Below, piece after piece: positions 50,691 through 63,505 of a stretch of DNA of 64,000 nucleotides. Origin of the DNA: Escherichia phage FH3. The notes beneath the pieces were generated by a model. It was not told the origin of the DNA. It did no database searches and saw nothing but the letters and a program-made list of their open reading frames with translations. The stretch is taken from sequence record OR886155.1; one strand, written 5' to 3'. The translations under genes were made by a program, and so were the position numbers. Positions within the stretch are counted from its first letter, which is position 1. Each line of letters starts with the position of its first letter.

Positions 50691-50843
50691 TTAGTGCGTA
50701 TGCATCCAGTTAAGTCCAATCTGACAATCAGATGCCAGAGGACATTCCATGTTCAAGTACTCACCAGCTTTCTTAACGCAAAGCTCAGTGTGCTCTTTGA
50801 GTTTCTGTACATCGTTACGATTAACTGAGAACTGGCCCTCATC
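50691..50843 (-). CDS. DNA polymerase (family A), exon 2
   Basis: Encodes DEGQFSV...MECPLASDCQIGLNWMHTH*, matching the Pol A C-terminus after motif C; a stop lies immediately upstream in frame, so it cannot be an independent gene. Confidence 0.7.
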   Translation of the reverse strand, partial: DEGQFSVNRNDVQKLKEHTELCVKKAGEYLNMECPLASDCQIGLNWMHTH

Positions 50844-51441
50844 CATTTATGTTATTCCCAAATTACTTCGGGTATCGGACTATATCATAACAGCATAGCT
50901 AATTTGCTGTTGTTGGCGCTTCGAGGGTTTCCCTGTTAACCCCCTACTCCCGCAGGATAGTCTCTACACTTTCCACTTTCGAATCCATCTACAAGCGATT
51001 CCAAAGCTCACACCAAACCTTTCTGCAAGAGCAACACCAGTGCATTCATTGTTAAGCCAGAACTCTTTAGCAGCATTCTGTCTTTCTCTGTTTCTGCCAG
51101 TGTTTGACTCGATAGCATGTGCACTACCTTCTAAGATTTCTAGATGGTCAGTATTGCAACAAGCTCTATTCTTGCATTTATGGTTAACTTCATAACCGTC
51201 AGGGATGTTTCCAAATTTCTCTTCCATGACGTATCTGTGATACATGACCCATTTGCCATTTATCATTTTTCGAAAGTAACCATCTTTATTTAGTTTGTGT
51301 GAGATAGGGATGATACATCCTGTGCTAGTTGTTTCTAGCACTAGATCTTTCTTAGCCATATCACCTCCTAATAGCTTAGCTCGGTATTGCCCTCAACTTA
51401 ATGGTCGGGTTTCACCGAGTTCACCAACTTTTACATGCACA
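50844..51441 (-). mobile_element. group I intron in the DNA polymerase gene, carrying an HNH ORF
   Basis: 5' exon ends ...AUGCAU; intron nt 11-16 GUGCAU can form P1 with a U-G pair at the splice site; GACUA (50958-50963) and GAUAUAGUCC (50877-50886) match R/S (P7) elements; last intron nt is G; ligation restores ...IDMH-DEGQ... Confidence 0.7.
50964..51359 (-). CDS. intron-encoded HNH homing endonuclease
   Basis: YEVNHKCKNRACCNTDHLE motif; own RBS AGGAGGTGAT; entirely inside the predicted intron. Confidence 0.7.
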   Translation of the reverse strand: MAKKDLVLETTSTGCIIPISHKLNKDGYFRKMINGKWVMYHRYVMEEKFGNIPDGYEVNHKCKNRACCNTDHLEILEGSAHAIESNTGRNRERQNAAKEFWLNNECTGVALAERFGVSFGIACRWIRKWKV

Positions 51442-53142
51442 ATGAAGTTTATGCATATCAATTACCTTAGCACAACGAACCTTATCTTTCTCAATCCACT
51501 TGTTAAGGAACATCATAGCATATTTCATAACAACAGCACCAGCACATTGCAGGAGTGTGTTAAGGGCTTTATGAACCATAACTTTACCAGTGGCATCTCG
51601 TCTCATTGTAATCTTACGACCATCAACACCAATCAAGTATCCTTGAGCAGCTTTCTCTGTCATACGATCAATGAGGATTGCAATACATGGGTTCTCTGCC
51701 AAGAAACGTGCTCGCATCACTGAACCTTCGTCAGCCCCACCACCTACAATTGAACCAAGCTTAGCATCGCCAGCACCGTAGTTGAATGCATAGATAAACG
51801 TTTTAGCGTTGTCACGAGTAGGAAGACCAGCAAGTTTCTGGTTGTGGGAGTGGATATCACCTTCAAGGAGAATATCACGATACATAATAGCAGAAGCTAA
51901 ACCACGTTCTGCCAGAGCTTTCTTAGCTGGGTTGTTCTCTTCAATTGCCTCAGCAAGCATATCCCTACACTCTTTAATGAGGTAGTGAGCGAGCATACGA
52001 AGTTCAAGCCCAGAACCATCATACCCTAAGAATACTTCTTTACCAGCGGGTATGTAATATTTGTAAGCACCTACAGGTTTGTCTTTCTTCCCCGGTTTAC
52101 CTTTCTCATAAATTACGTTAGTACCTTTTCGTATATAACAACCATCAGGAACAACGTTAGTAATAACGAAAGGACGAGAATGATCACTGTCTGAGTTATA
52201 GTCAGACTCAAACAAACTGCGACACTCGTGACCAAACAAACCACGGGAGGGAATATTAACCACGATACGATGTTTGAATCGAAAAGTCGGCGTAGCGCAG
52301 CTGTTAGCTTCTGCCGAAAGTTTACCATCTTCGCGTTCCTTTGCTATGAGTCCACTGATAAGACCTAGCCTGTGAGCCGCTACAACGCGTCTCTTAAGCA
52401 AACTTCCGACACTCCCTAGCTCACCCCCTAACCCTTCTTCAAGAGTCTCCTCGAGGTTTGTAGGAGCTGTAGGCCACTTGTTTGAAGTGGCTAGTGCTTT
52501 CTTAATCTCATCAAACGTTACAGGATTACGTCGATTCGGGTTTAATCCCAAACCAAACACGTAAGCCTTCATATAGTTCTTAGTTTTAAACCTAAAATGC
52601 TTTTCTAAGAACTTCTTAATATCAGCGTCAACCATCTCGGCTGTCTGCTTCTGCTTAGCATTGCCTCGCATCCAAGCAGTATACCATGCTTGGTATGTTC
52701 CATACTTTCGCATGTCTTTCTTAATTTCGAAAGTATTCCAAGGTTTCTTAGATACGTTAAACTCTGGAGGAAGAAAGCCCTCATCCATAAGAGCTTCTTT
52801 AACTCGTGCATCTTTCGATGGGTCAAAGTCTACGTATTCGACACAGGTGAAAGCTCCACCAATATCTTCTCTCTTCAGCCCAACCCTATCACAATAGGCT
52901 TGAGGCCACTTCTGTAAAGCTCCAGACTTCTTAAACGGCTTCATGTAAGTAGAGCCATCTAATCTCATCTTAGGTAAGAGAGGAATCAACTCTCTGTCAA
53001 TATTAACAATAATCTCTTTAAGGAGGTGAATATACCACCGAGCATTTCTTCGGTTGAAACTCACTCCGTGCTTTGCTTGCTTAGAGATTATATCAGCGAC
53101 AGTCATCTCTGTCAAAAATGGAAGAGCGTCCGGGTTGCTCAC
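51442..53142 (-). CDS. DNA polymerase (family A), exon 1
   Basis: Motif A GYDGSGLELRMLAHY and motif B RDNAKTFIYAFNYGAGDAKLG present; motif C absent from this ORF; the last 9 codons of the listed ORF are intron sequence. Confidence 0.85.
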
Positions 53143-56362: not shown

Positions 56363-57605
56363 TGTTTACCTCAGAAATTATAAGGGTCATAATCAAGAGA
56401 ATCAAACCCATAATCTGAGCTATTAAGGTATCGGCGCTTTAATCCGAAATCTTCGTAGTGAGGTTTTCCAGGAACAGTTTTGCCTTTGGTTATGTTCGTT
56501 ACTTGACTAGAAGAGAAAAGGTGAACCCCTTCAGAAGTCCTAGCAGAAGATTTTTCTCCTTTCTTAACCACTTTTCCTTTTTTGGCCCATCCTTCGAATG
56601 TTCTATATTGCATCAAAACTCCTTACCACAATGTCCATTCAGTAAGGGACCACAGAGAGTCCCCTATGTGGGTGTTGTCATGTCGGATGAGATCTTTGAT
56701 TTTATCAACATCAGTCAAGTGAGTTACATTCAAGATATCCTCAACATCTGGAACATGTTTGAATATGGCAACAATGTTATTACCATCATCAGAAAACTCC
56801 TCAAGCACATAAACTACACTCATGCGACATTAGCCTCTTTATGAAGTCTGTAAATAGCTGTCGCCATGCAAGCAACAGCCTCGTTGTGTGGGAGGTGCAT
56901 CCCTGTAGAACCATCCCAATCTTTGAACTCACTGTCAAAGACTCCGGTAGGCTCTGGATACAGAGCTTGCAGCTCCACTAGATCGTTAGCAACTTGTTGC
57001 CATTTATCGTCAGACCAGATAGGGTCATCCAACCAGTAATACAAATAGGAATGGATGATCAATTGCCTTCTGTGCCGATTAATTACTTCAGCGGGACTTA
57101 TCTCACTTCCATTTGAAGTCCTAAATGTATTACTGTCAATCATTACGAAAATTCCCGTTCTGTTAAAGAGTGCTGAACTTCATTATCCGGAGACCAAACC
57201 TTTTCTCCATTTACCAATTTCTTAGCATCTTCATCTGAAGCACAATCTAAAGCAGGATTATCAGGTGTTGGCTTCTTTGGAAATCTTTTCCAAGTCCAAA
57301 AATATCCGTCATCGTCTTGGCAACCAAGAGTCCACAAAGTTTTCATTTCACAACCTTAAATTTAAATGTTGTTGGGTGAGAATAATTCCACACAGTCAAG
57401 CATGTAGTAGGAGTAACCAAAGGGTTTGGCTGTTAAGTTGGAAACCATTTTATCAAAAAGGGATTGAGAAACATCCTCTTCTACTCCAACATCCTCAAGC
57501 TGCTGCTTTGTAGGATAGTCAGTGAAAGAGCAAAGAATTTCTGTATCCTCTCCTCTGTCTGCATCCTCAACACGACTCAGAATCCAAATATTCTTCCTAA
57601 CCATT

Positions 57606-58262
57606 TTAATTCTCCAAAGTTTTCTTCAGAGCTGCCCACGAGATTGGGTAGAGCTTAGCCATCTCTTCATCTACGGATTTAGCAAACACTCGAACTTCAT
57701 ATTGAGCGTGAGAGGATAGTCGCTGACGGCACAACTCAAACCAGCCATACAAAGAACCAGTCCACACCCACTCAGTGATCATCCCCTGAGGAAGAACAAA
57801 TCGAGCTTGCTCTGGTGCAATAAATTCAATCAACTTATCATATGCTGCTAAAGAAGCTTCATATGCATCGTTAATCAACATTAATGCTTCAGCTCGCTCT
57901 CCGTCGATGAGTTGAATCCCTGAACCTGCATGGAGGTCCGAAGGTCTCGCAAAAATCTCTTTAGGGATGAAGACTTCAACTGCTCCATCTTTATACCGCC
58001 GGGACATTTCGTTCCACGAGAATCCAACCTGATGCTTTCCCAGCTGTCTCGCAATTGCGATAGGTGCTTTGCATCGGAAACTGACTTGCGGGTGTCGGAA
58101 TGGAGTACAGTGTTTTTCCCGTGCAAGGAAGTTGATAAGTTTTGTGTCTCTCTCATTTAAGTCACCTTCTCGAACAACACCGAAAGATACTCTAGCTGCA
58201 TTGACTACAGATTTGTCACTTCCCATTGCTTCAATCAGTGTTGCTTGTAGTTGTTCGTTCAA
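57606..58262 (-). CDS. thyX: ThyX-like flavin-dependent thymidylate synthase homolog with atypical signature motif
   Basis: HCTPFRH...KAPIAIARQL...SWNEMSRRY fits ThyX; the position where I expect the RHR motif reads K-H-Q. Confidence 0.7.
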   Translation of the reverse strand: MNEQLQATLIEAMGSDKSVVNAARVSFGVVREGDLNERDTKLINFLAREKHCTPFRHPQVSFRCKAPIAIARQLGKHQVGFSWNEMSRRYKDGAVEVFIPKEIFARPSDLHAGSGIQLIDGERAEALMLINDAYEASLAAYDKLIEFIAPEQARFVLPQGMITEWVWTGSLYGWFELCRQRLSSHAQYEVRVFAKSVDEEMAKLYPISWAALKKTLEN

Positions 58263-58701
58263 TTAAAAGTTCCTTTTTTCGATTCATGTAAACTTGATGA
58301 GCTTCTTCGGCAGTTCCATACATACCTAGATGTATATCTACTTTATCAATACAAATAACAGCCCTATATCTGATAGTGCCTGATCTGTATTTGACAACCT
58401 TAACACCTTGAAGCCCTGTTTCCTTGTTTGATACTCTAGCCCCGAACTGGTTGTGGCAGTTTGTCGAGGTGTCCACCAATCTCAAGTTCTGTATTGAGTT
58501 GTTCTTCTTATTTCTATCGATATGGTCTATCTGAGAAGAAGGCCATTCTCCATAGTAAAAGAACCATGCCACTTTATGAGCTTTGTGTACTTTCCCTTTA
58601 AACCGCAGGGTTATGTACTTACTTCGAGTTCCTCCTAATTTCTTACCTTTTCGAAAGAACTCTCCAGTTTCAGGGATATACTCTAAATCATCGATTACCA
58701 T
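58231..58701 (-). CDS. HNH homing endonuclease with AP2-like DNA-binding domain
   Basis: SQIDHIDRNKKNNSIQNLRLV motif; C-terminal ...HLGMYGTAEEAHQVY. Confidence 0.7.
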   Translation of the reverse strand: MVIDDLEYIPETGEFFRKGKKLGGTRSKYITLRFKGKVHKAHKVAWFFYYGEWPSSQIDHIDRNKKNNSIQNLRLVDTSTNCHNQFGARVSNKETGLQGVKVVKYRSGTIRYRAVICIDKVDIHLGMYGTAEEAHQVYMNRKKELLIERTTTSNTD

Positions 58702-58966
58702 TCAGAGCTGTATCCAAAAAAGCTTTCAGGTTTGCTTCAGTCTGCATACCAGAAATGCTGTAGTGTGCACCACTATTACGGTCAGGCACAATGAAAGCAG
58801 GGATGCTTCGTACACCATACTTAACAGCTTGTTCACGACCATCACCTTCAAGGATGTTAATCTCTTCCACTTCTACATCAAACTCCTTAACAACCTTCTC
58901 AAAGGTAGGAGCCATTGCTTTACATGGAGCACATTGATCACTATAAAACTTAATTACTTTAGACAT
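58688..58966 (-). CDS. thioredoxin
   Basis: 92 aa, FYSDQCAPCK active-site CxxC, thioredoxin-length. Confidence 0.75.
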   Translation of the reverse strand: MSKVIKFYSDQCAPCKAMAPTFEKVVKEFDVEVEEINILEGDGREQAVKYGVRSIPAFIVPDRNSGAHYSISGMQTEANLKAFLDTALNGNR

Positions 58967-58974
58967 GTAAATCC

Positions 58975-59154
58975 TTATGCAGTCAGGAGGTGAAGCAGGA
59001 ATGGGATAACAACAGCTATGATAACCATGATGGTTGATGCTGTTTGAATCTCACCTTTCTTATCAGGGGTTTCTTCAATAAGCTTCCCAGAAGCCCAATA
59101 AATACCACCACCAATAAAGATAGCCCAAATACCCCATACGATTGCTGATAACAT
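58975..59154 (-). CDS. small two-TM membrane protein (59 aa, below ORF-track cutoff)
   Basis: My translation MLSAIVWGIWAIFIGGGIYWASGKLIEETPDKKGEIQTASTIMVIIAVVIPFLLHLLTA. Confidence 0.3.
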   Translation of the reverse strand: MLSAIVWGIWAIFIGGGIYWASGKLIEETPDKKGEIQTASTIMVIIAVVIPFLLHLLTA

Positions 59155-59214
59155 ATATCTATATCCTTATAAATAAGTTCGCCCCACCTCGGGTTAGGAG
59201 ACAGGGCGGAGGTT

Positions 59215-59793
59215 TTAGTAAGACACATCACCACTTGAATGGGACATGTTGCTCTTGACGAAGTAGCAATACTTGCCAAGACCTTCATTAATTTCTTGAA
59301 GCATACTCTGATCGACAGGGTAGGTGGCTAAATCACCATCAAACTCATCCATCTTCTCAATAATACACATCAAGGTCATGCACATATCAGAGAGCATACC
59401 GTCCATGTCTAGATCAGCATTACCCTCTGAGAACCAAGCATGAGAGAGGTAGTTAGCTGCTGTAGCATCCACTTTAACACAGTGGTAACGCATACGTTCA
59501 GCAATACGATCTCCTACCTGTCGTGCGTAATCTTCCAGCTCATCAAACATACCATGAACACCTTGAAATCCTGCACCAGAGACGTTCCAGTGGTAGTTTT
59601 TAGCTTTGATATGCAAGAGTTCCATGTTAGCTTGTAAGCAGCTCAGGATGTGTTCTAGGCTGTTTCCACTAATCATACCCTGCATTGTTTCAAGGCGAGA
59701 GATTGATAGGTCGGACCGGTCTAACATGCTATAACTGTCACGACCGATCTCAGGTAAATCAAAAACATTCTTATGCATTTGGGTTTTCTCCAT
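59215..59793 (-). CDS. Dps/ferritin-like protein
   Basis: LQANMELLHIKAKNYHWNVSGAGFQGVHGMFDELEDYARQVGDRIAERM resembles the Dps four-helix ferroxidase region. Confidence 0.5.
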   Translation of the reverse strand: MEKTQMHKNVFDLPEIGRDSYSMLDRSDLSISRLETMQGMISGNSLEHILSCLQANMELLHIKAKNYHWNVSGAGFQGVHGMFDELEDYARQVGDRIAERMRYHCVKVDATAANYLSHAWFSEGNADLDMDGMLSDMCMTLMCIIEKMDEFDGDLATYPVDQSMLQEINEGLGKYCYFVKSNMSHSSGDVSY

Positions 59794-60100
59794 CCAGTTC
59801 AACTGAGTTAGCAACATTACGTGCGATATTATCCATTACCTGCTGAGTAATTACGATGCAGTTCTGTGGGTCTACTGACTTAGAACGCCCCATTTCAGGG
59901 TCATACACCTTAACTCGCTTAGCAGTTGAACCTGTAACCTGAAGAACCTTCAACAGATATCCCTGATTACCAATAGACCAAGCAACAACATCACGATTCT
60001 TGATAAAGCGACCAAGCATATCACGATGATAAAACTGTTGCATCACCTTGGATTTTGTAATCTCTTCAGTGGGCGGGGCCACTTTACTCAAATCTAACAT
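59771..60100 (-). CDS. hypothetical protein
   Basis: ORF track. Confidence 0.3.
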   Translation of the reverse strand: MLDLSKVAPPTEEITKSKVMQQFYHRDMLGRFIKNRDVVAWSIGNQGYLLKVLQVTGSTAKRVKVYDPEMGRSKSVDPQNCIVITQQVMDNIARNVANSVELDGENPNA

Positions 60101-60172
60101 AACTCTCTCCTGTAAAATACAAATTCTTGTTGTACTCTATATACATTTGAGAGTTACCATATCTACTACCAA

Positions 60173-60382
60173 TCAGTAATAAATTACTTTAGACATAAAA
60201 GAACCCGAGTTAGGGTCTTCGTACCAGCGATGAATGTCAGCACTTTTAACTGTTCCAATTAAAGTTTTCATCTTCTTCTTAGCAATACGAGCATCTTTAC
60301 GGGTGTCAAATAATTTGATATTATCTTTACCTAGATGGTGTCCATCTTCCCAAACAACACGAACAGCCCATATCTTTTTCAT
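60173..60382 (-). CDS. small basic protein, paralog pair member 1
   Basis: MKKIWAVRVVW...; adjacent to a similar ORF. Confidence 0.35.
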   Translation of the reverse strand: MKKIWAVRVVWEDGHHLGKDNIKLFDTRKDARIAKKKMKTLIGTVKSADIHRWYEDPNSGSFMSKVIYY

Positions 60383-60576
60383 TAGTAATGTACCTTTCCG
60401 CTGATATAAACACGACCAGAGGAATACTCTCTGGCCTTATGAATGCTAATACTCTTAGTTAAGTCCATATTGAACATAGACTTTTTAAACTCTCGAGCTT
60501 GTTGGCGGGTAGGTAGTGCAGTCATAGTCATACCACCTGATGCCCACTTAATCTTCGCTAACCAGAATTGTCTCAT
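60382..60576 (-). CDS. small basic protein, paralog pair member 2
   Basis: MRQFWLAKIKW... Confidence 0.35.
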   Translation of the reverse strand: MRQFWLAKIKWASGGMTMTALPTRQQAREFKKSMFNMDLTKSISIHKAREYSSGRVYISGKVHY

Positions 60577-60629
60577 TTATCTTTCATCCACATTAAAGGA
60601 GAGATGAAGTCTACTTCTCATAGACTTCG

Positions 60630-61100
60630 CTAGGAGTTTTGCCTCTTCAAGAGTTTTACTCCATACACAGACTCACGTTTACCATCTTTTTGAACAGATA
60701 CACAGAACGTCCCGCCCTTCTCTTGGTAGACATTCTTAACTCCTAGCTTGTTATCAACCCTTGTCTTAGCATTCTGACTGTTCTCAGAGTGAGAGCACTT
60801 TCTCAGGTTAGTTTCTTCTAGGTTTTCTCTGTTACCATCGGCATGATCTATTTGATATTCATCCGATAAATCCTCACCAGTATAAAGAACAAAAAGAATC
60901 CTATGATTATGGACACGAACTCCTCCTAAGGGAATTTGATAATACCCATCTTTTGTGAGCTTGCCATCAGGTTTACCTACTATATCATTAGCAAACTTAC
61001 TAGGCTTCCTTTTCCAAGAAAGCCCTGAAGGGGATGACATGTCTATATTAAAGAGATCAACTACTTCATCATAGCATATCAGCATGATTTGTTCCACCAA
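60630..61100 (-). CDS. HNH homing endonuclease
   Basis: YQIDHADGNRENLEETNLRKCSHSEN motif. Confidence 0.7.
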   Translation of the reverse strand: MVEQIMLICYDEVVDLFNIDMSSPSGLSWKRKPSKFANDIVGKPDGKLTKDGYYQIPLGGVRVHNHRILFVLYTGEDLSDEYQIDHADGNRENLEETNLRKCSHSENSQNAKTRVDNKLGVKNVYQEKGGTFCVSVQKDGKRESVYGVKLLKRQNS

Positions 61101-61623
61101 AAGCTTTTGTTGGCCCTTGTTGGTTATTGTATGAACCTTTAGTTGCGTAGCTATCCTCTTCCGAGGATGAGTGTTTAAAGAATTCCATCTGACCGATACG
61201 CATTCCCGGCTTGATCAGCAGAGAGTGGTGCTGTAGGACGTTCTTGAATTCCATAGTTAACTGACTGCCATGCCAACCACCGTCAGCATGACCAGCGTGC
61301 ATGTGCTCTAAGAAGCAACGACCGACAGTAGATCGTAGCATGAAGTCACAGCTAATGTTGTCTGGAAGGTTGAATGTCTCCACTGTATGAGCTAAGAAAC
61401 ACTCACCCGGTTTGATCACCAACCCTTCCTCTGGAATCATAACCTCATTGAAATTAGGGGATTCTTTAGCAGAGATATCAACAACCCCATTAGCTGCACC
61501 TTCCATCAGAACACGATCTCCAATACGAACATCAATGCTGGAGGAATTAACAGCTGAGTGTGGTGCATCAATAACACCATCATCAATTAATTTATGTAAC
61601 TCTGGGCTTCCTAGTAAACTCAT
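61069..61623 (-). CDS. dCTP deaminase/dUTPase-superfamily enzyme (Dcd-like)
   Basis: IDVRIG, RSTVGR, GWHG...LEF.N, KPGMRIGQ and YNNQQG segments match the Dcd layout. Confidence 0.75.
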   Translation of the reverse strand: MSLLGSPELHKLIDDGVIDAPHSAVNSSSIDVRIGDRVLMEGAANGVVDISAKESPNFNEVMIPEEGLVIKPGECFLAHTVETFNLPDNISCDFMLRSTVGRCFLEHMHAGHADGGWHGSQLTMEFKNVLQHHSLLIKPGMRIGQMEFFKHSSSEEDSYATKGSYNNQQGPTKAFGGTNHADML

Positions 61624-61632
61624 TCTTATTCC

Positions 61633-62946
61633 TTAGTTATTTGTTTCCATGTCAAAAGAGATTCCACGACCCGCTTCATCGGCAAACCGAACTGTACGGG
61701 TTTGAGGTTCTAATACTTCAGGGTTGTTGGCAATAAAGCGATCAGCGAGATTATCTACCACATCTTGGGCCACACCTTCATCAGTCCACACAGCCCTAAC
61801 AGGTGCGTTGATATCACCAACAGCAAAACCCTGACCAGAGAACTGGTGACGGCTAACAGTCAAGCCGTTTGATCGACCACGAGAAGGACTAGACATCCAT
61901 TGCTCCATAGAATCACTTGTAATACCAAGAGCTTCTTCAAAAGATGTTCTACGAGAAGAGCTTAGATTTCGTGCTTCATTTGCTCGACGTCTTGTAGGGG
62001 CTACAAACACCCCTTCAATTGCATTGTGTCGGTTAGGTTCGTCTTCTCTACCAAGCAGATCACCACCTGTATTAGTTGTTAAATTTGTCAACCCTTCAGA
62101 CCAATACGCATGAATCTGACCGGAACCGTGAAGACTAGACATAATCTGAATCTCTTCATAAGGGATTCCAAAAAATCGACTCATGTCTCGGTTAACACAA
62201 TATAGAGCACTTGTTGTATCCTCAATAAGAGCAACCTGACCTATTTCATTAACAAGATGACTGACTGGCTGAGGTGTAGGAAGGTATCGAGTTTGGGCCA
62301 TATATTGATATGCAACAGATGGGGCTGAGAATCTTAACACTTGTGAATTAGGCCACTTTTTGTGAACGTATCTGATTTCACGACTAGAAACAACCACAGG
62401 GCAAGGGGCGGTCATAGCTAAATACCCATGAGGGGTCATGAATAAGTTGTCAAGAGTCATCGCACCACGGCACATCATAGGAAAGTTATCCAATACCTCT
62501 TCGATAGAAGTAGGATAATTAAACATGAATTGGATACGAACCCCATTCCACTGAAACTCAATAATATCAGTGAATGTTAATTGAGAACCCCCAGCATAGG
62601 ATTCGTTTGTAGCTTCAGCAAGAAGAGATGAATACTCAATATCTTGAGACTCAAGCCACTCTTTAACGTTACTTTCAACTTCTCGTCCGAGATCTTGCCA
62701 CTGCTCATGACGGATGAAAGTATTTCGAGTTCTTGGGGCCTGTCCTCTGACAATAAAGATATCAATGTCATGCGGAGCTGTGTTATTAAGCACAGCATCA
62801 CGAATAGCCCCACCAGTGATGATAGGACAAATACAGTCTGGAATCAAGTTGTTGTTAATCAGCTGTTCAATGAAGTGACGACCAACAGTGATATCCGGTT
62901 GTTGAGCAACCTTATCTTCAATTCGGTTAATCGGGATAACAATCAT
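61633..62946 (-). CDS. nucleotidyltransferase with CCA-adding-enzyme/poly(A)-polymerase-type head motif
   Basis: ITGGAIRDAVLNNTAPHDIDIFIV corresponds to the G-G-A-V-R-D ... D-x-D head signature; the remaining ~380 aa not recognised. Confidence 0.5.
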   Translation of the reverse strand: MIVIPINRIEDKVAQQPDITVGRHFIEQLINNNLIPDCICPIITGGAIRDAVLNNTAPHDIDIFIVRGQAPRTRNTFIRHEQWQDLGREVESNVKEWLESQDIEYSSLLAEATNESYAGGSQLTFTDIIEFQWNGVRIQFMFNYPTSIEEVLDNFPMMCRGAMTLDNLFMTPHGYLAMTAPCPVVVSSREIRYVHKKWPNSQVLRFSAPSVAYQYMAQTRYLPTPQPVSHLVNEIGQVALIEDTTSALYCVNRDMSRFFGIPYEEIQIMSSLHGSGQIHAYWSEGLTNLTTNTGGDLLGREDEPNRHNAIEGVFVAPTRRRANEARNLSSSRRTSFEEALGITSDSMEQWMSSPSRGRSNGLTVSRHQFSGQGFAVGDINAPVRAVWTDEGVAQDVVDNLADRFIANNPEVLEPQTRTVRFADEAGRGISFDMETNN

Positions 62947-62947
62947 T

Positions 62948-63505
62948 TTACATTTTCCAATATAATGAAGGTGGGTCGTAAGGGTCAAATCCTGTGATTT
63001 CACACAAGAAAAGATAAACCTTAACAGTTAAGTTAACGTCCTGTTCACAATAAGTAAACATATCTTCAGTGAAAGCATCCCATGCTTCCTCTTGCTCACC
63101 ATAATCGCCCTTAAGTTCTCCTAAGAACTCACCCCACTGCTTCAAACCATGACCCCTTGGGCCACGTCTAGGGTCGCCTTTCGGATACTCAGGACTGTCA
63201 CCAATACGGTCAGGTTTAAGATATCGACTAAGACATAAAGTGTCAAAGACGTTAAAATTATATTTAATCAAAGAGGGATACATCTTCTTCAGAGCAGGTA
63301 AGTCGAAGTCAATAATATTATGACCCACGAGCACATCTGCTTCTGTCAGTTTACGAATCCCGTCTTCGATTTGGTGAGGCCGATAGCCCCACCTTTCACC
63401 AGTTTCAACATCGAAGATATAAATACACCATACTTTAGTTATGTCATCGTACAGTGCATTACTCTCGATATCGAATGCAAACACTTTCTTCTTTTTCTTT
63501 ACCAC
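62948..63505 (-). CDS. stand-alone 3'-5' proofreading exonuclease (DnaQ/Pol A exo-like)
   Basis: Exo I FAFDIESN, Exo [15 protein letters not shown], Exo [11 protein letters not shown]. Confidence 0.7.

Follow-up and report, generated by a model that had tools for sequence, protein, structure and literature searches.

The window analysed here, a 64,000-nt stretch of Escherichia phage FH3 (OR886155.1), belongs to a Kuravirus, a phiEco32/SU10-like podophage, and is 99.7% identical to phage 1-6af. We observed that its minus strand carries a thioredoxin gene and a Dps gene, both real and both lying where the original prediction had placed them, together with a T7-like DNA polymerase (Table 1). Only the predicted end of the span, 59793, needs correction, as it marks another in-frame ATG. 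The Dps reading frame covers 59215–59817, and the ATG at 59778 is the likely start, because it overlaps the stop codon of the preceding gene (ATGCATAA), has a GGAG 9 nt ahead of it and is the annotated start in relatives. The finding is real but an ordinary one, since phiEco32 and SU10 already have annotations for both genes. The Dps has the same sequence as in phiEco32 (100% identity), and the thioredoxin is ~96% identical to its ortholog. A Dps gene is indeed uncommon in a phage, as had been suggested (167 of 50,697 records), but in this phage group it is conserved and long annotated.

Table 1 Features of the thioredoxin/Dps locus and of the polymerase genes in the window.
Feature	Position	Strand	Evidence
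Polymerase exon 2 (DEGQFSV...NWMHTH)	50691–50843	−	Alignment to SU10 gene
Insert of ~607 nt in polymerase motif C (..MH/DE..)	50844–51450	−	blastn vs uninterrupted SU10 gene
T7-like family A DNA polymerase, polymerase subunit, exon 1	51451–53142	−	hhalign, Foldseek, blastn vs SU10
Thumb insertion, polymerase residues ~58–98	52849–52971	−	hhalign
ThyX flavin-dependent thymidylate synthase, downstream of the thioredoxin gene	57606–58262	−	Pfam Thy1, 3.3e-43
Free-standing HNH homing endonuclease	58231–58701	−	Pfam HNH_3, 1.6e-13
Minimal thioredoxin, 92 aa	58688–58966	−	Pfam PF00085, PDB and family alignments
59-aa ORF between the Dps and thioredoxin genes, predicted membrane protein	58975–59154	−	phrog_9296, 7e-34 (unknown function)
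GC-rich hairpin directly 3' of the Dps stop codon	59180–59208	−	Folding
Dps (mini-ferritin), 187 aa	59215–59778	−	Pfam, PHROG, PDB, fold, ligand alignment
gp68-like protein, 109 aa	59771–60100	−	phrog_10984; stop codon overlaps Dps start
Separate 3'-5' exonuclease subunit	62948–63505	−	Pfam DNA_pol_A_exo1, 1.2e-8; SU10 annotation

The predicted Dps/ferritin-like gene was confirmed by matches to Pfam Ferritin PF00210 (2.8e-7, 31 bits, cut-off 24.5), phrog_3636 (3e-55) and PDB Dps proteins (E as low as 2.7e-9). Its AlphaFold model (monomer, mean pLDDT 79.8) has helices at residues 41–65, 71–98, 107–112, 125–150 and 154–176, which form the four-helix bundle with short BC helix of bacterial Dps proteins such as E. 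coli Dps, M. smegmatis Dps2 and B. anthracis Dlp-2. Foldseek superimposes the model on Dps crystal structures with a target-normalised TM of up to 0.92 and an rmsd of 1.1–1.6 Å. Phage and bacterial proteins are only 17–27% identical; the ferroxidase ligand pattern and its spacing are the same in both. The ligand region aligns without gaps, with phage H63, W64, H75, D79, D90 and E94 corresponding to E. coli H51, W52, H63, D67, D78 and E82, so that every ligand is present in the alignment that the original prediction had proposed as a check. These residues are invariant in 15 phage homologs, Privateer and E. coli, and a C-terminal K-(F/Y)-x-(W/Y)-F-(I/V)-x-S-N motif is likewise shared by phage and bacterial proteins. 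Judged by these alignments, the phage protein is a bona fide Dps with a predicted complete ferroxidase centre. Unlike its bacterial counterparts, it is carried by a lytic phage, always with a gp68-like gene ahead of it, and has an N-terminal extension of 40 aa, acidic or neutral, in place of the Lys-rich DNA-binding tail, which is of the E. coli type and not universal in the family. Residues 1–40 have a net charge of −2, compared to +3 for E. coli residues 1–22, and the pI of the whole protein is 4.7. Since the catalytic site is complete but a basic tail is absent, neither ‘DNA-binding protein’ nor ‘integrase’, its labels in databases, is supported.

The thioredoxin with a CAPC active site was likewise borne out. 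The gene product matches Pfam Thioredoxin PF00085 (E = 1.5e-13, 51.1 bits, cut-off 23.5), phrog_22 ‘thioredoxin domain’ (7e-13) and PDB thioredoxins (E as low as 3e-10), and has the active site Q-C12-A-P-C15. Within its family both cysteines and the proline of the CxxC motif are invariant, and the residue ahead of the motif, Trp in TrxA, is Q, S or T. Comparison with E. coli TrxA (as in the T7 gp5 complex, PDB 1T7P family) reveals a common fold core with 34% identity, which includes the CxPC motif, the cis-proline loop R-x-I-P and an equivalent of G92: phage R53-S-I55-P56 and G73 align with E. coli R73-G-I75-P76 and G92, and cis-Pro56 is kept. The phage protein differs from TrxA in the loss of ~21 N-terminal residues, the beta1-alpha1 unit (PDB alignments begin at E. 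coli residue 23–24), and in the changes W31 to Q, D26 to K and G74 to S, with K90 unconserved. It therefore lacks the five-strand fold with beta1-alpha1 and the buried D26, and at 49.9 bits it scores below the NCBIfam thioredoxin equivalog cut-off of 96.8. Minimal archaeal-type thioredoxins (MJ0307, Pfam Thioredoxin_3, NCBIfam TIGR00411) are of comparable size (~80–90 aa) and share the four-strand fold with no N-terminal extension and a CxxC near the N-terminus, but the phage protein matches this family less well than classical thioredoxin (28 vs 51 bits, Pfam). Homologs with as little as 34–50% identity all keep C12, P14, C15, cis-Pro56, R53 and G73, which argues for selection on thiol chemistry. 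The gene is predicted to encode a redox-competent minimal thioredoxin. Its recognition by host TrxB and ribonucleotide reductase is uncertain, because W31, D26 (now K) and the N-terminal beta-alpha unit are absent.

The two genes share their neighbourhood with genes for dCTP deaminase, ThyX, a primase-helicase, an exonuclease subunit and PhoH. The corresponding phiEco32 cluster is of the middle class (PMC8948821; PMC4281155), and mass spectrometry of SU10 lysate picked up both proteins (PMC4281155). Podophages of the C3 morphotype (phiEco32, SU10, 7-11, GAP52 and Privateer) have orthologs of both in the same middle-gene context; in C3 relatives outside the Kuraviruses the genes run Trx-gp68-Dps, and these phages bring ribonucleotide reductase genes of their own. 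The window differs from other members in the HNH endonuclease gene between the thioredoxin gene and thyX, which overlaps both and alters the C-terminus of the thioredoxin. This HNH gene is absent from the site in SU10 and 1-6af and present in ES17; it is a mobile insert, outside the thioredoxin/Dps function.

The gp68-like gene is a faithful, uncharacterised small partner of Dps. They occur together in all 13 loci of the C3-podophage lineage, as neighbours or as overlapping genes in 11. A phmmer search of 1.84 billion protein representatives returned only 30 cluster representatives of the gp68-like family, and no meaningful domain match came from Pfam scans of the protein and of its phmmer matches or from a profile search of the PDB; WD40 and LysM matches were rejected as spurious repeat matches. 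The gp68-like protein aligns with Privateer gp069, whereas pairwise BLAST of the window and Privateer was negative for the other pairings of small ORFs that flank Dps. The 59-aa ORF on the other side of Dps has two hydrophobic stretches, by eye transmembrane helices, and gave no match in a Pfam scan.

A T7-type polymerase had also been predicted nearby, and we recovered it with hhalign against T7 gp5 (probability 100%, E = 9e-55); in Foldseek searches of the PDB the top 27 matches are all T7 gp5. Unlike T7 gp5, the phage enzyme is split into exonuclease and polymerase subunits. The polymerase subunit gene is interrupted as well: nucleotides 1–1691 of the SU10 gene align to window positions 53142–51452, and the listed reading frame (51421–53142) runs past exon 1 into the intervening sequence, to 51421. 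This insert matches Rfam Intron_gpI at 26.2 bits (E = 2.6e-4), under the gathering score of 50, and is probably a group I intron with an HNH ORF. The ORF it carries lies at 50964–51359 (HNH_3, 7e-12). Splicing would yield a polymerase subunit of 614 aa.

The hhalign alignment places a thumb insertion of ~41 residues opposite T7 residues ~266–326, between helix H and helix H1 and before the FNPS motif, where Klenow has no residues. It is 22 residues shorter (three gaps) than the matching stretch of the 76-aa T7 thioredoxin-binding domain, so that the full-length domain of ~76 residues with basic loops A and B is not found. The insertion is predicted to form a compact, ordered beta-alpha-beta unit, with pLDDT above 90 in the absence of a partner. 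Polymerase R91-E92...T99...V101-E102 matches T7 R318-E319...T327...V329-E330, and the T7 contacts E319, P325, T327, V329 and E330, drawn from a molecular-dynamics and genetics study (PMC5984650), correspond to E92, A97, T99, V101 and E102; at A97 the clade consensus is Pro. The insertion is conserved across the polymerase clade with its contact residues, equally in LUZ24-type phages. By this alignment, the clade carries a putative short, conserved homolog of the T7 thioredoxin-binding domain, which makes the published processivity hypothesis concretely testable.

The thioredoxin is distributed differently from the insertion. It is present in Kuravirus, Privateer and the relative L009 and absent from LUZ24, L010 and L023, and across the clade we found no correlation between the insertion and a thioredoxin gene. 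LUZ24 has the same insertion and neither a thioredoxin nor a Dps gene. L009 has the thioredoxin-like gene and no Dps, while L010, like L023, has polymerase and Dps with no thioredoxin within 5–10 kb. Since the insertion occurs in thioredoxin-less LUZ24 types and the presence of thioredoxin and Dps varies among relatives, these data give no support to a specific coupling of polymerase and phage thioredoxin; members that lack the gene may use host thioredoxin. Among the 13 C3-podophage loci, the thioredoxin gene lies within 5 kb of the gp68-like/Dps pair in 10–11, with its position flipping from downstream to upstream. Privateer has it in the same gene block as the phage NrdAB, ~6 kb downstream, and on contig L010 Dps lies near NrdD/NrdG; both neighbourhoods point to a link of the pair with iron enzymes and the supply of dNTPs. 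The original prediction had offered a reductase outside the window as a possible client. Searches by tblastn with Privateer NrdA/NrdB and L010 NrdD/NrdG found no ribonucleotide reductase in the window or in the SU10 and 1-6af regions analysed, and the SU10 annotation outside the window (54.6–77.3 kb) lists none, so a ribonucleotide reductase of the phage's own was rejected as client.

We give an even chance to the reading that thioredoxin and Dps are a redox and iron-housekeeping add-on of the replication phase, and not an obligatory part of the polymerase. The Dps would assemble the usual 12-subunit cage, oxidise Fe2+ with H2O2 at its inter-subunit sites and store the iron, which could lessen Fenton damage to replicating phage DNA. 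DNA binding through a basic tail is improbable, because such a tail is absent. The thioredoxin would be reduced by host thioredoxin reductase and act as a general disulfide reductase that feeds host ribonucleotide reductase and thiol peroxidases, while phage dCTP deaminase and ThyX would drive dTTP synthesis. Against this, the host client enzyme is already served by TrxA and Grx1, and the benefit of a second Dps is unclear because E. coli has its own. The tight pairing of the gp68-like gene with Dps also hints at a more specific function.

Alternatively, the thioredoxin might act as processivity subunit for the T7-like polymerase that the phage encodes, docked on the thumb insertion as E. coli TrxA docks on T7 gp5, with replication independent of host TrxA. 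This hypothesis has been in print since 2021 for this phage group (PMC7881722), and we regard it as a possibility, if an unlikely one. The idea that the thioredoxin serves the polymerase is structurally plausible, because the insertion sits exactly at the position of the T7 thioredoxin-binding domain and its contact residues are kept. The thioredoxin in turn retains R53, I55, P56 and G73, although these residues are conserved in nearly all thioredoxins, and K90, G74 and W31 are not retained. Kuraviruses also keep the gene despite having no ribonucleotide reductase. However, the insertion falls short of the T7 domain and is predicted to be well ordered on its own, it is just as conserved in LUZ24-type polymerases, LUZ24 itself having no thioredoxin gene, L010 and L023 combine polymerase and Dps with no thioredoxin nearby, and TrxA is already supplied by the host. 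A broader form of the proposal, in which the virus-encoded clamp on a conserved ‘mini thioredoxin-binding domain’ would free the replisome from TrxA while LUZ24-like relatives recruit the host protein, we hold to be quite unlikely; if true, the principle of a thioredoxin clamp, as in T7, would hold for a large and diverse polymerase clade.

The remaining proposals start from Dps. The gp68-like protein, Dps and thioredoxin might form one module of partner-assisted iron storage and thioredoxin-driven release to NrdB/NrdG-type dNTP enzymes, which we consider improbable. The constant gp68-like/Dps pairing fits it, as do the thioredoxin gene that stays close despite its flip and the relatives that place the trio in the NrdAB gene block or the pair near NrdD/NrdG. 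But proximity is weak evidence, because replication-module synteny is conserved anyway. In addition, L010 and L023 have no thioredoxin gene close to Dps, the members are set apart by other genes in IME267 and in phages of the 7-11 type, and the gp68-like protein has no recognisable domain. We know of no precedent for thioredoxin-driven release of iron from Dps. Finally, in line with its ‘DNA-binding protein’ label, Dps could be associated with DNA or with the virion and coat, condense or accompany the genome of the phage. Mass spectrometry found Dps in Privateer virions from CsCl step and equilibrium gradients (PMC7881722), which also counts against the housekeeping role favoured above, and it was abundant in SU10 proteomics (35.8% coverage; PMC4281155). 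The SU10 sample, however, was lysate precipitated with PEG, and cryo-EM work on purified SU10 virions, in which only major gel bands were analysed, does not mention Dps (PMC9509320). Moreover, an iron-loaded Dps cage could co-band with phage in CsCl, the gene is a middle and not a late one, and the acidic protein (extension charge −2, pI 4.7) has no Lys-rich tail. Taken with these points, a place of Dps on the genome or in the virion seems highly improbable.

The value added for the two genes is modest, and as matters stand little is new. Kuraviruses are phage therapy candidates, and the BASEL collection now offers members on E. coli K-12 (Bas89–94), so that experiments should be easy; we found no mention of Kuravirus dependence on host trxA in the BASEL paper. 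Near the genes, the phiEco32 gp36 promoter motif (tAATGTAtA) has one-mismatch matches only, at 59830–59838 and 60140–60148, and across the window its matches are not above chance (25 found vs 20.5 expected). A scan for sigma-70-type promoters gave fewer sites than in shuffled sequence. The hairpin that follows Dps has an 11-bp stem with 7 GC pairs and a folding energy of −18.5 kcal/mol (z = −2.0). Suseptimavirus IME267 has the identical stem with a different loop, and the hairpin resembles a terminator or an element that stabilises RNA.

We identified a thioredoxin gene and a Dps gene in the FH3 window, each assigned by family membership, catalytic residues, fold and genomic context. A megablast search of 50,697 phage records with positions 57500-61700 returned 98 matches, nearly all from Escherichia and Shigella Kuravirus phages, that is, phiEco32/SU10-like podophages of C3 morphotype in the subfamily Gordonclarkvirinae; the closest were 1-6af (99.7%) and ES17 (96%). 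Both genes lie on the minus strand in a block of middle genes, which in transcription order encodes a primase-helicase, an exonuclease subunit, a nucleotidyltransferase, dCTP deaminase, small ORFs, the gp68-like protein, Dps, a 59-aa membrane protein, thioredoxin, ThyX, PhoH and DNA polymerase. The BASEL paper speculates that the deaminase and nucleotidyltransferase produce a DNA modification behind the restriction-modification resistance of Gordonclarkvirinae. The HNH gene beside the thioredoxin gene is present in ES17 and not in SU10 or 1-6af, and it alters the thioredoxin C-terminus. The locus itself had been described before: in 2014 the SU10 paper listed CDS65 (thioredoxin), CDS67 (DPS-domain protein) and CDS68 as genes that every sequenced C3 phage conserves. 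The original prediction is confirmed as an observation, and its interpretation is partly supported and not new.

Features of the thioredoxin-Dps region and the polymerase gene in FH3
Feature	Position	Strand	Basis or remark
HNH_3 ORF inside the polymerase insert	50964-51359	-	
DNA polymerase subunit, 573-aa ORF	51421-53142	-	T7-like (phmmer, hhalign, model)
Free-standing HNH_3 homing endonuclease gene 1	58231-58701	-	Between thioredoxin gene and thyX, overlapping both
Thioredoxin, 92 aa	58688-58966	-	Pfam, phrog and PDB matches
Dps	59215-59778	-	Pfam Ferritin, phrog_3636, PDB Dps family
gp68-like protein, 109 aa	59771-60100	-	Stop codon overlaps Dps start codon
Free-standing HNH_3 homing endonuclease gene 2	60630-61100	-	Near thioredoxin/Dps locus
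dCTP deaminase	61069-61623	-	Adjoins nucleotidyltransferase
Nucleotidyltransferase, 456 aa	61633-63003	-	phrog_12715; weak PolyA_pol head domain
Exonuclease subunit	62948-63505		Middle-gene block

The thioredoxin gene lies where it had been predicted. Its product scored 51.1 bits against Pfam Thioredoxin (cut-off 23.5, E=1.5e-13) and matched phrog_22 and PDB thioredoxins (best E 3e-10). It fell under the NCBIfam equivalog cut-off for thioredoxin (49.9 vs 96.8 bits), and within NCBIfam its match to MJ0307-type mini-thioredoxins was weak. Alignment with E. coli thioredoxin 1 (TrxA, sequence from NC_000913) and 14 phage homologs showed that the phage protein begins at about TrxA residue 23 and so has a minimal thioredoxin fold without beta1-alpha1. 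C12, P14 and C15 (C-A/V/S-P-C), R53 (= R73), P56 (= cis-Pro76) and G73 (= G92) are invariant in the family. Of the other TrxA residues, K90 is not retained, W31 is replaced by Q, S or T, G74 by Ser, and D26 by a nearly invariant Lys. Both cysteines and the cis-proline are strictly kept in homologs down to 34-50% identity, a pattern that suggests selection on thiol chemistry. Homologs occur in 130 of the 50,697 phage records.

The Dps open frame reaches 59817. The ATG at 59778 has GGAG 9 nt upstream, is the start annotated in relatives and shares bases with the upstream gene's stop codon (ATGCATAA); 59793, where the gene had been predicted to begin, is another in-frame ATG. The protein matched Pfam Ferritin (31 bits, cut-off 24.5), phrog_3636 (3e-55) and 59 PDB Dps-family sequences (best E 2.7e-9). 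In an alignment with the Dps proteins of E. coli (sequence from NC_000913) and Privateer and with distant metagenomic homologs, it retained every ferroxidase ligand: H63, W64, H75, D79, D90 and E94 correspond without gaps to E. coli H51, W52, H63, D67, D78 and E82, and all six are invariant in 15/15 phage homologs. The loss of ligands that had been named as grounds against the prediction is therefore not observed. The AlphaFold2 model (mean pLDDT 79.8, core >90) has the helix pattern typical of Dps, four long helices and a short one in the BC loop, and its top Foldseek matches were only Dps structures (target-normalised TM up to 0.92, rmsd 1.1-1.6 A over ~140 residues). Residues 1-40 form a family-specific extension modelled at low confidence. 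Orthologs are labelled 'integrase' in many Kuravirus and Suseptimavirus GenBank records and 'DNA-binding protein' in others (including ES17, IME267, DE5 and EC.W2-6, and also L012 1501-2067); the sequence supports neither label. The gene had been called unusual in a phage, and it is uncommon, with homologs in 167 of the 50,697 records, among them C3 podophages and phages of Streptomyces, Aeromonas, Synechococcus and Listeria. Nor is it novel or confined to this phage, since the phiEco32 protein is 100% identical and the gene is annotated in SU10. Directly after the Dps stop codon we observed a GC-rich hairpin with an 11-bp stem (59180-59208, minus strand), whose stem is identical in Suseptimavirus IME267 and whose loop has diverged. 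The hairpin may either terminate transcription or stabilise mRNA, setting Dps apart from the genes for the membrane protein and thioredoxin that lie downstream.

Our favoured reading, held with moderate confidence, is that in the replication phase Dps acts as a dodecameric iron/H2O2 detoxifier and thioredoxin as a host-recycled disulfide reductase. Dps would assemble as the usual dodecamer, and its ferroxidase sites would remove Fe2+ and H2O2 during phage DNA replication. The thioredoxin would be redox-active, recycled by the host thioredoxin reductase TrxB, and would support host ribonucleotide reductase and thiol peroxidases beside the phage dCTP deaminase/ThyX pathway. How the subunits assemble, what is catalysed, which clients are served and how the phage benefits are inferred; the literature shows the expression class and the detection of the proteins. 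The gp68-like protein is a candidate for a dedicated partner of the phage Dps: across the C3-podophage lineage its gene accompanies Dps at 13/13 loci, at 11 of them as the immediate neighbour, and it was not found beside more distant Dps genes on seven viral contigs. The family is very small, a search of 1.84 billion proteins yielding only 30 cluster representatives, and it has no Pfam or PDB match and no detectable domain. It is improbable that gp68, Dps and thioredoxin form a single iron module. An association of Dps with DNA or the virion appears quite improbable. The Privateer paper (2021, PMC7881722) reported Dps in CsCl-purified virions, and in the SU10 paper mass spectrometry detected thioredoxin and Dps in PEG-precipitated lysate; a cryo-EM study of purified SU10 virions, in which only major gel bands were analysed, mentions neither protein. 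The first 40 residues of the phage Dps carry a net charge of -2 vs +3 in the Lys-rich tail with which E. coli Dps binds DNA, and the whole protein has a pI of 4.7.

The thioredoxin had also been proposed to serve the nearby polymerase, an idea stated explicitly in the Privateer paper (2021, PMC7881722), where it is proposed as the polymerase processivity factor. The polymerase is T7-type, as predicted. T7 gp5 was its sole PDB find by phmmer (1.4e-29), a 75-sequence family profile aligned with T7 residues 206-704 (hhalign, probability 100%, E=9e-55), and the 27 best PDB matches of its AF2 model (pLDDT 87.9) were T7 gp5, followed by Bst and Taq Pol I. The T7 thioredoxin-binding domain comprises 76 residues between helix H and the FNPSS motif (PMC5984650). 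At this position the Kuravirus polymerase carries a ~41-residue insertion (residues ~58-98), whereas Klenow has nothing there. Its C-terminal half is recognisably homologous to the T7 domain: R91-E92-D-I-G-G-A97-F-T99-C-V101-E102 aligns with T7 R318-E319-Y-V-A-G-A-P325-Y-T327-P-V329-E330, a segment that includes the reported gp5-thioredoxin contacts E319-K90, E330-R73, T327-I75, V329-R73 and P325-A93 (PMC5984650). The published idea is therefore structurally plausible. However, the insertion and its conserved residues occur in 75/75 aligned clade members covering the region, including the 545-aa LUZ24-type enzymes, and LUZ24 itself lacks both thioredoxin and Dps by annotation and tblastn. Relatives show every gene combination: the two genes occur together in Kuravirus and Privateer, one contig (L009) has solely a 70-aa CGPC thioredoxin-like gene, and two (L010 and L023) have Dps with no thioredoxin found within 5-10 kb. 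Moreover, the insertion falls 22 residues short of the T7 domain in length and is confidently predicted to form a compact beta-alpha-beta unit by itself. These three results weaken the idea, and we regard a role as clamp of this polymerase as unlikely. The thioredoxin residues matching the T7-binding surface are those kept in almost all thioredoxins.

A phage reductase outside the window, the other suggested client, was not borne out. Privateer NrdA/NrdB and L010 NrdD/NrdG queries gave no tblastn match in the 64-kb window or in the regions searched of 1-6af and SU10, which took in the SU10 sequence beyond the window; the SU10 annotation lists no ribonucleotide reductase at 54.6-77.3 kb, and the SU10 paper mentions none. 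In Privateer, NrdAB is encoded ~6 kb upstream of thioredoxin-gp69-Dps within one gene block, and Dps is immediately followed by a 98-aa 'ribonucleotide reductase' fragment. L010 carries the anaerobic NrdD/NrdG and a small ATP-cone protein near gp68-like and Dps (Nrd-context loci: L010 650-6080; L005 1-2718 and 10034-10330). Since these non-Kuravirus relatives have Nrd genes, the ancestral thioredoxin may have served a phage ribonucleotide reductase; the Kuravirus thioredoxin could serve only that of the host.

Compared with T7 gp5, the polymerase has three further insertions (residues 137-205, 313-372 and 389-425, within 51451-53142 on the minus strand). Only in the C3-phage clade do the thumb and fingers insertions reach ~60-70 aa and 37 aa; in LUZ24-type enzymes they measure 40 and 9 aa. 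The gene (50691-53142, minus strand) is broken inside motif C (..VIDMH|DEGQF..) by ~607 nt at 50844-51450. In SU10 and phiEco32 it is uninterrupted (614 aa), and by blastn SU10 nt 1-1691 correspond to 53142-51452 and nt 1693-1845 to 50843-50691. An Rfam group I intron matched the insert at 50856-51036 below threshold (26.2 bits, E=2.6e-4). As group I introns require, the last base of polymerase exon 1 is U and that of the insert is G.
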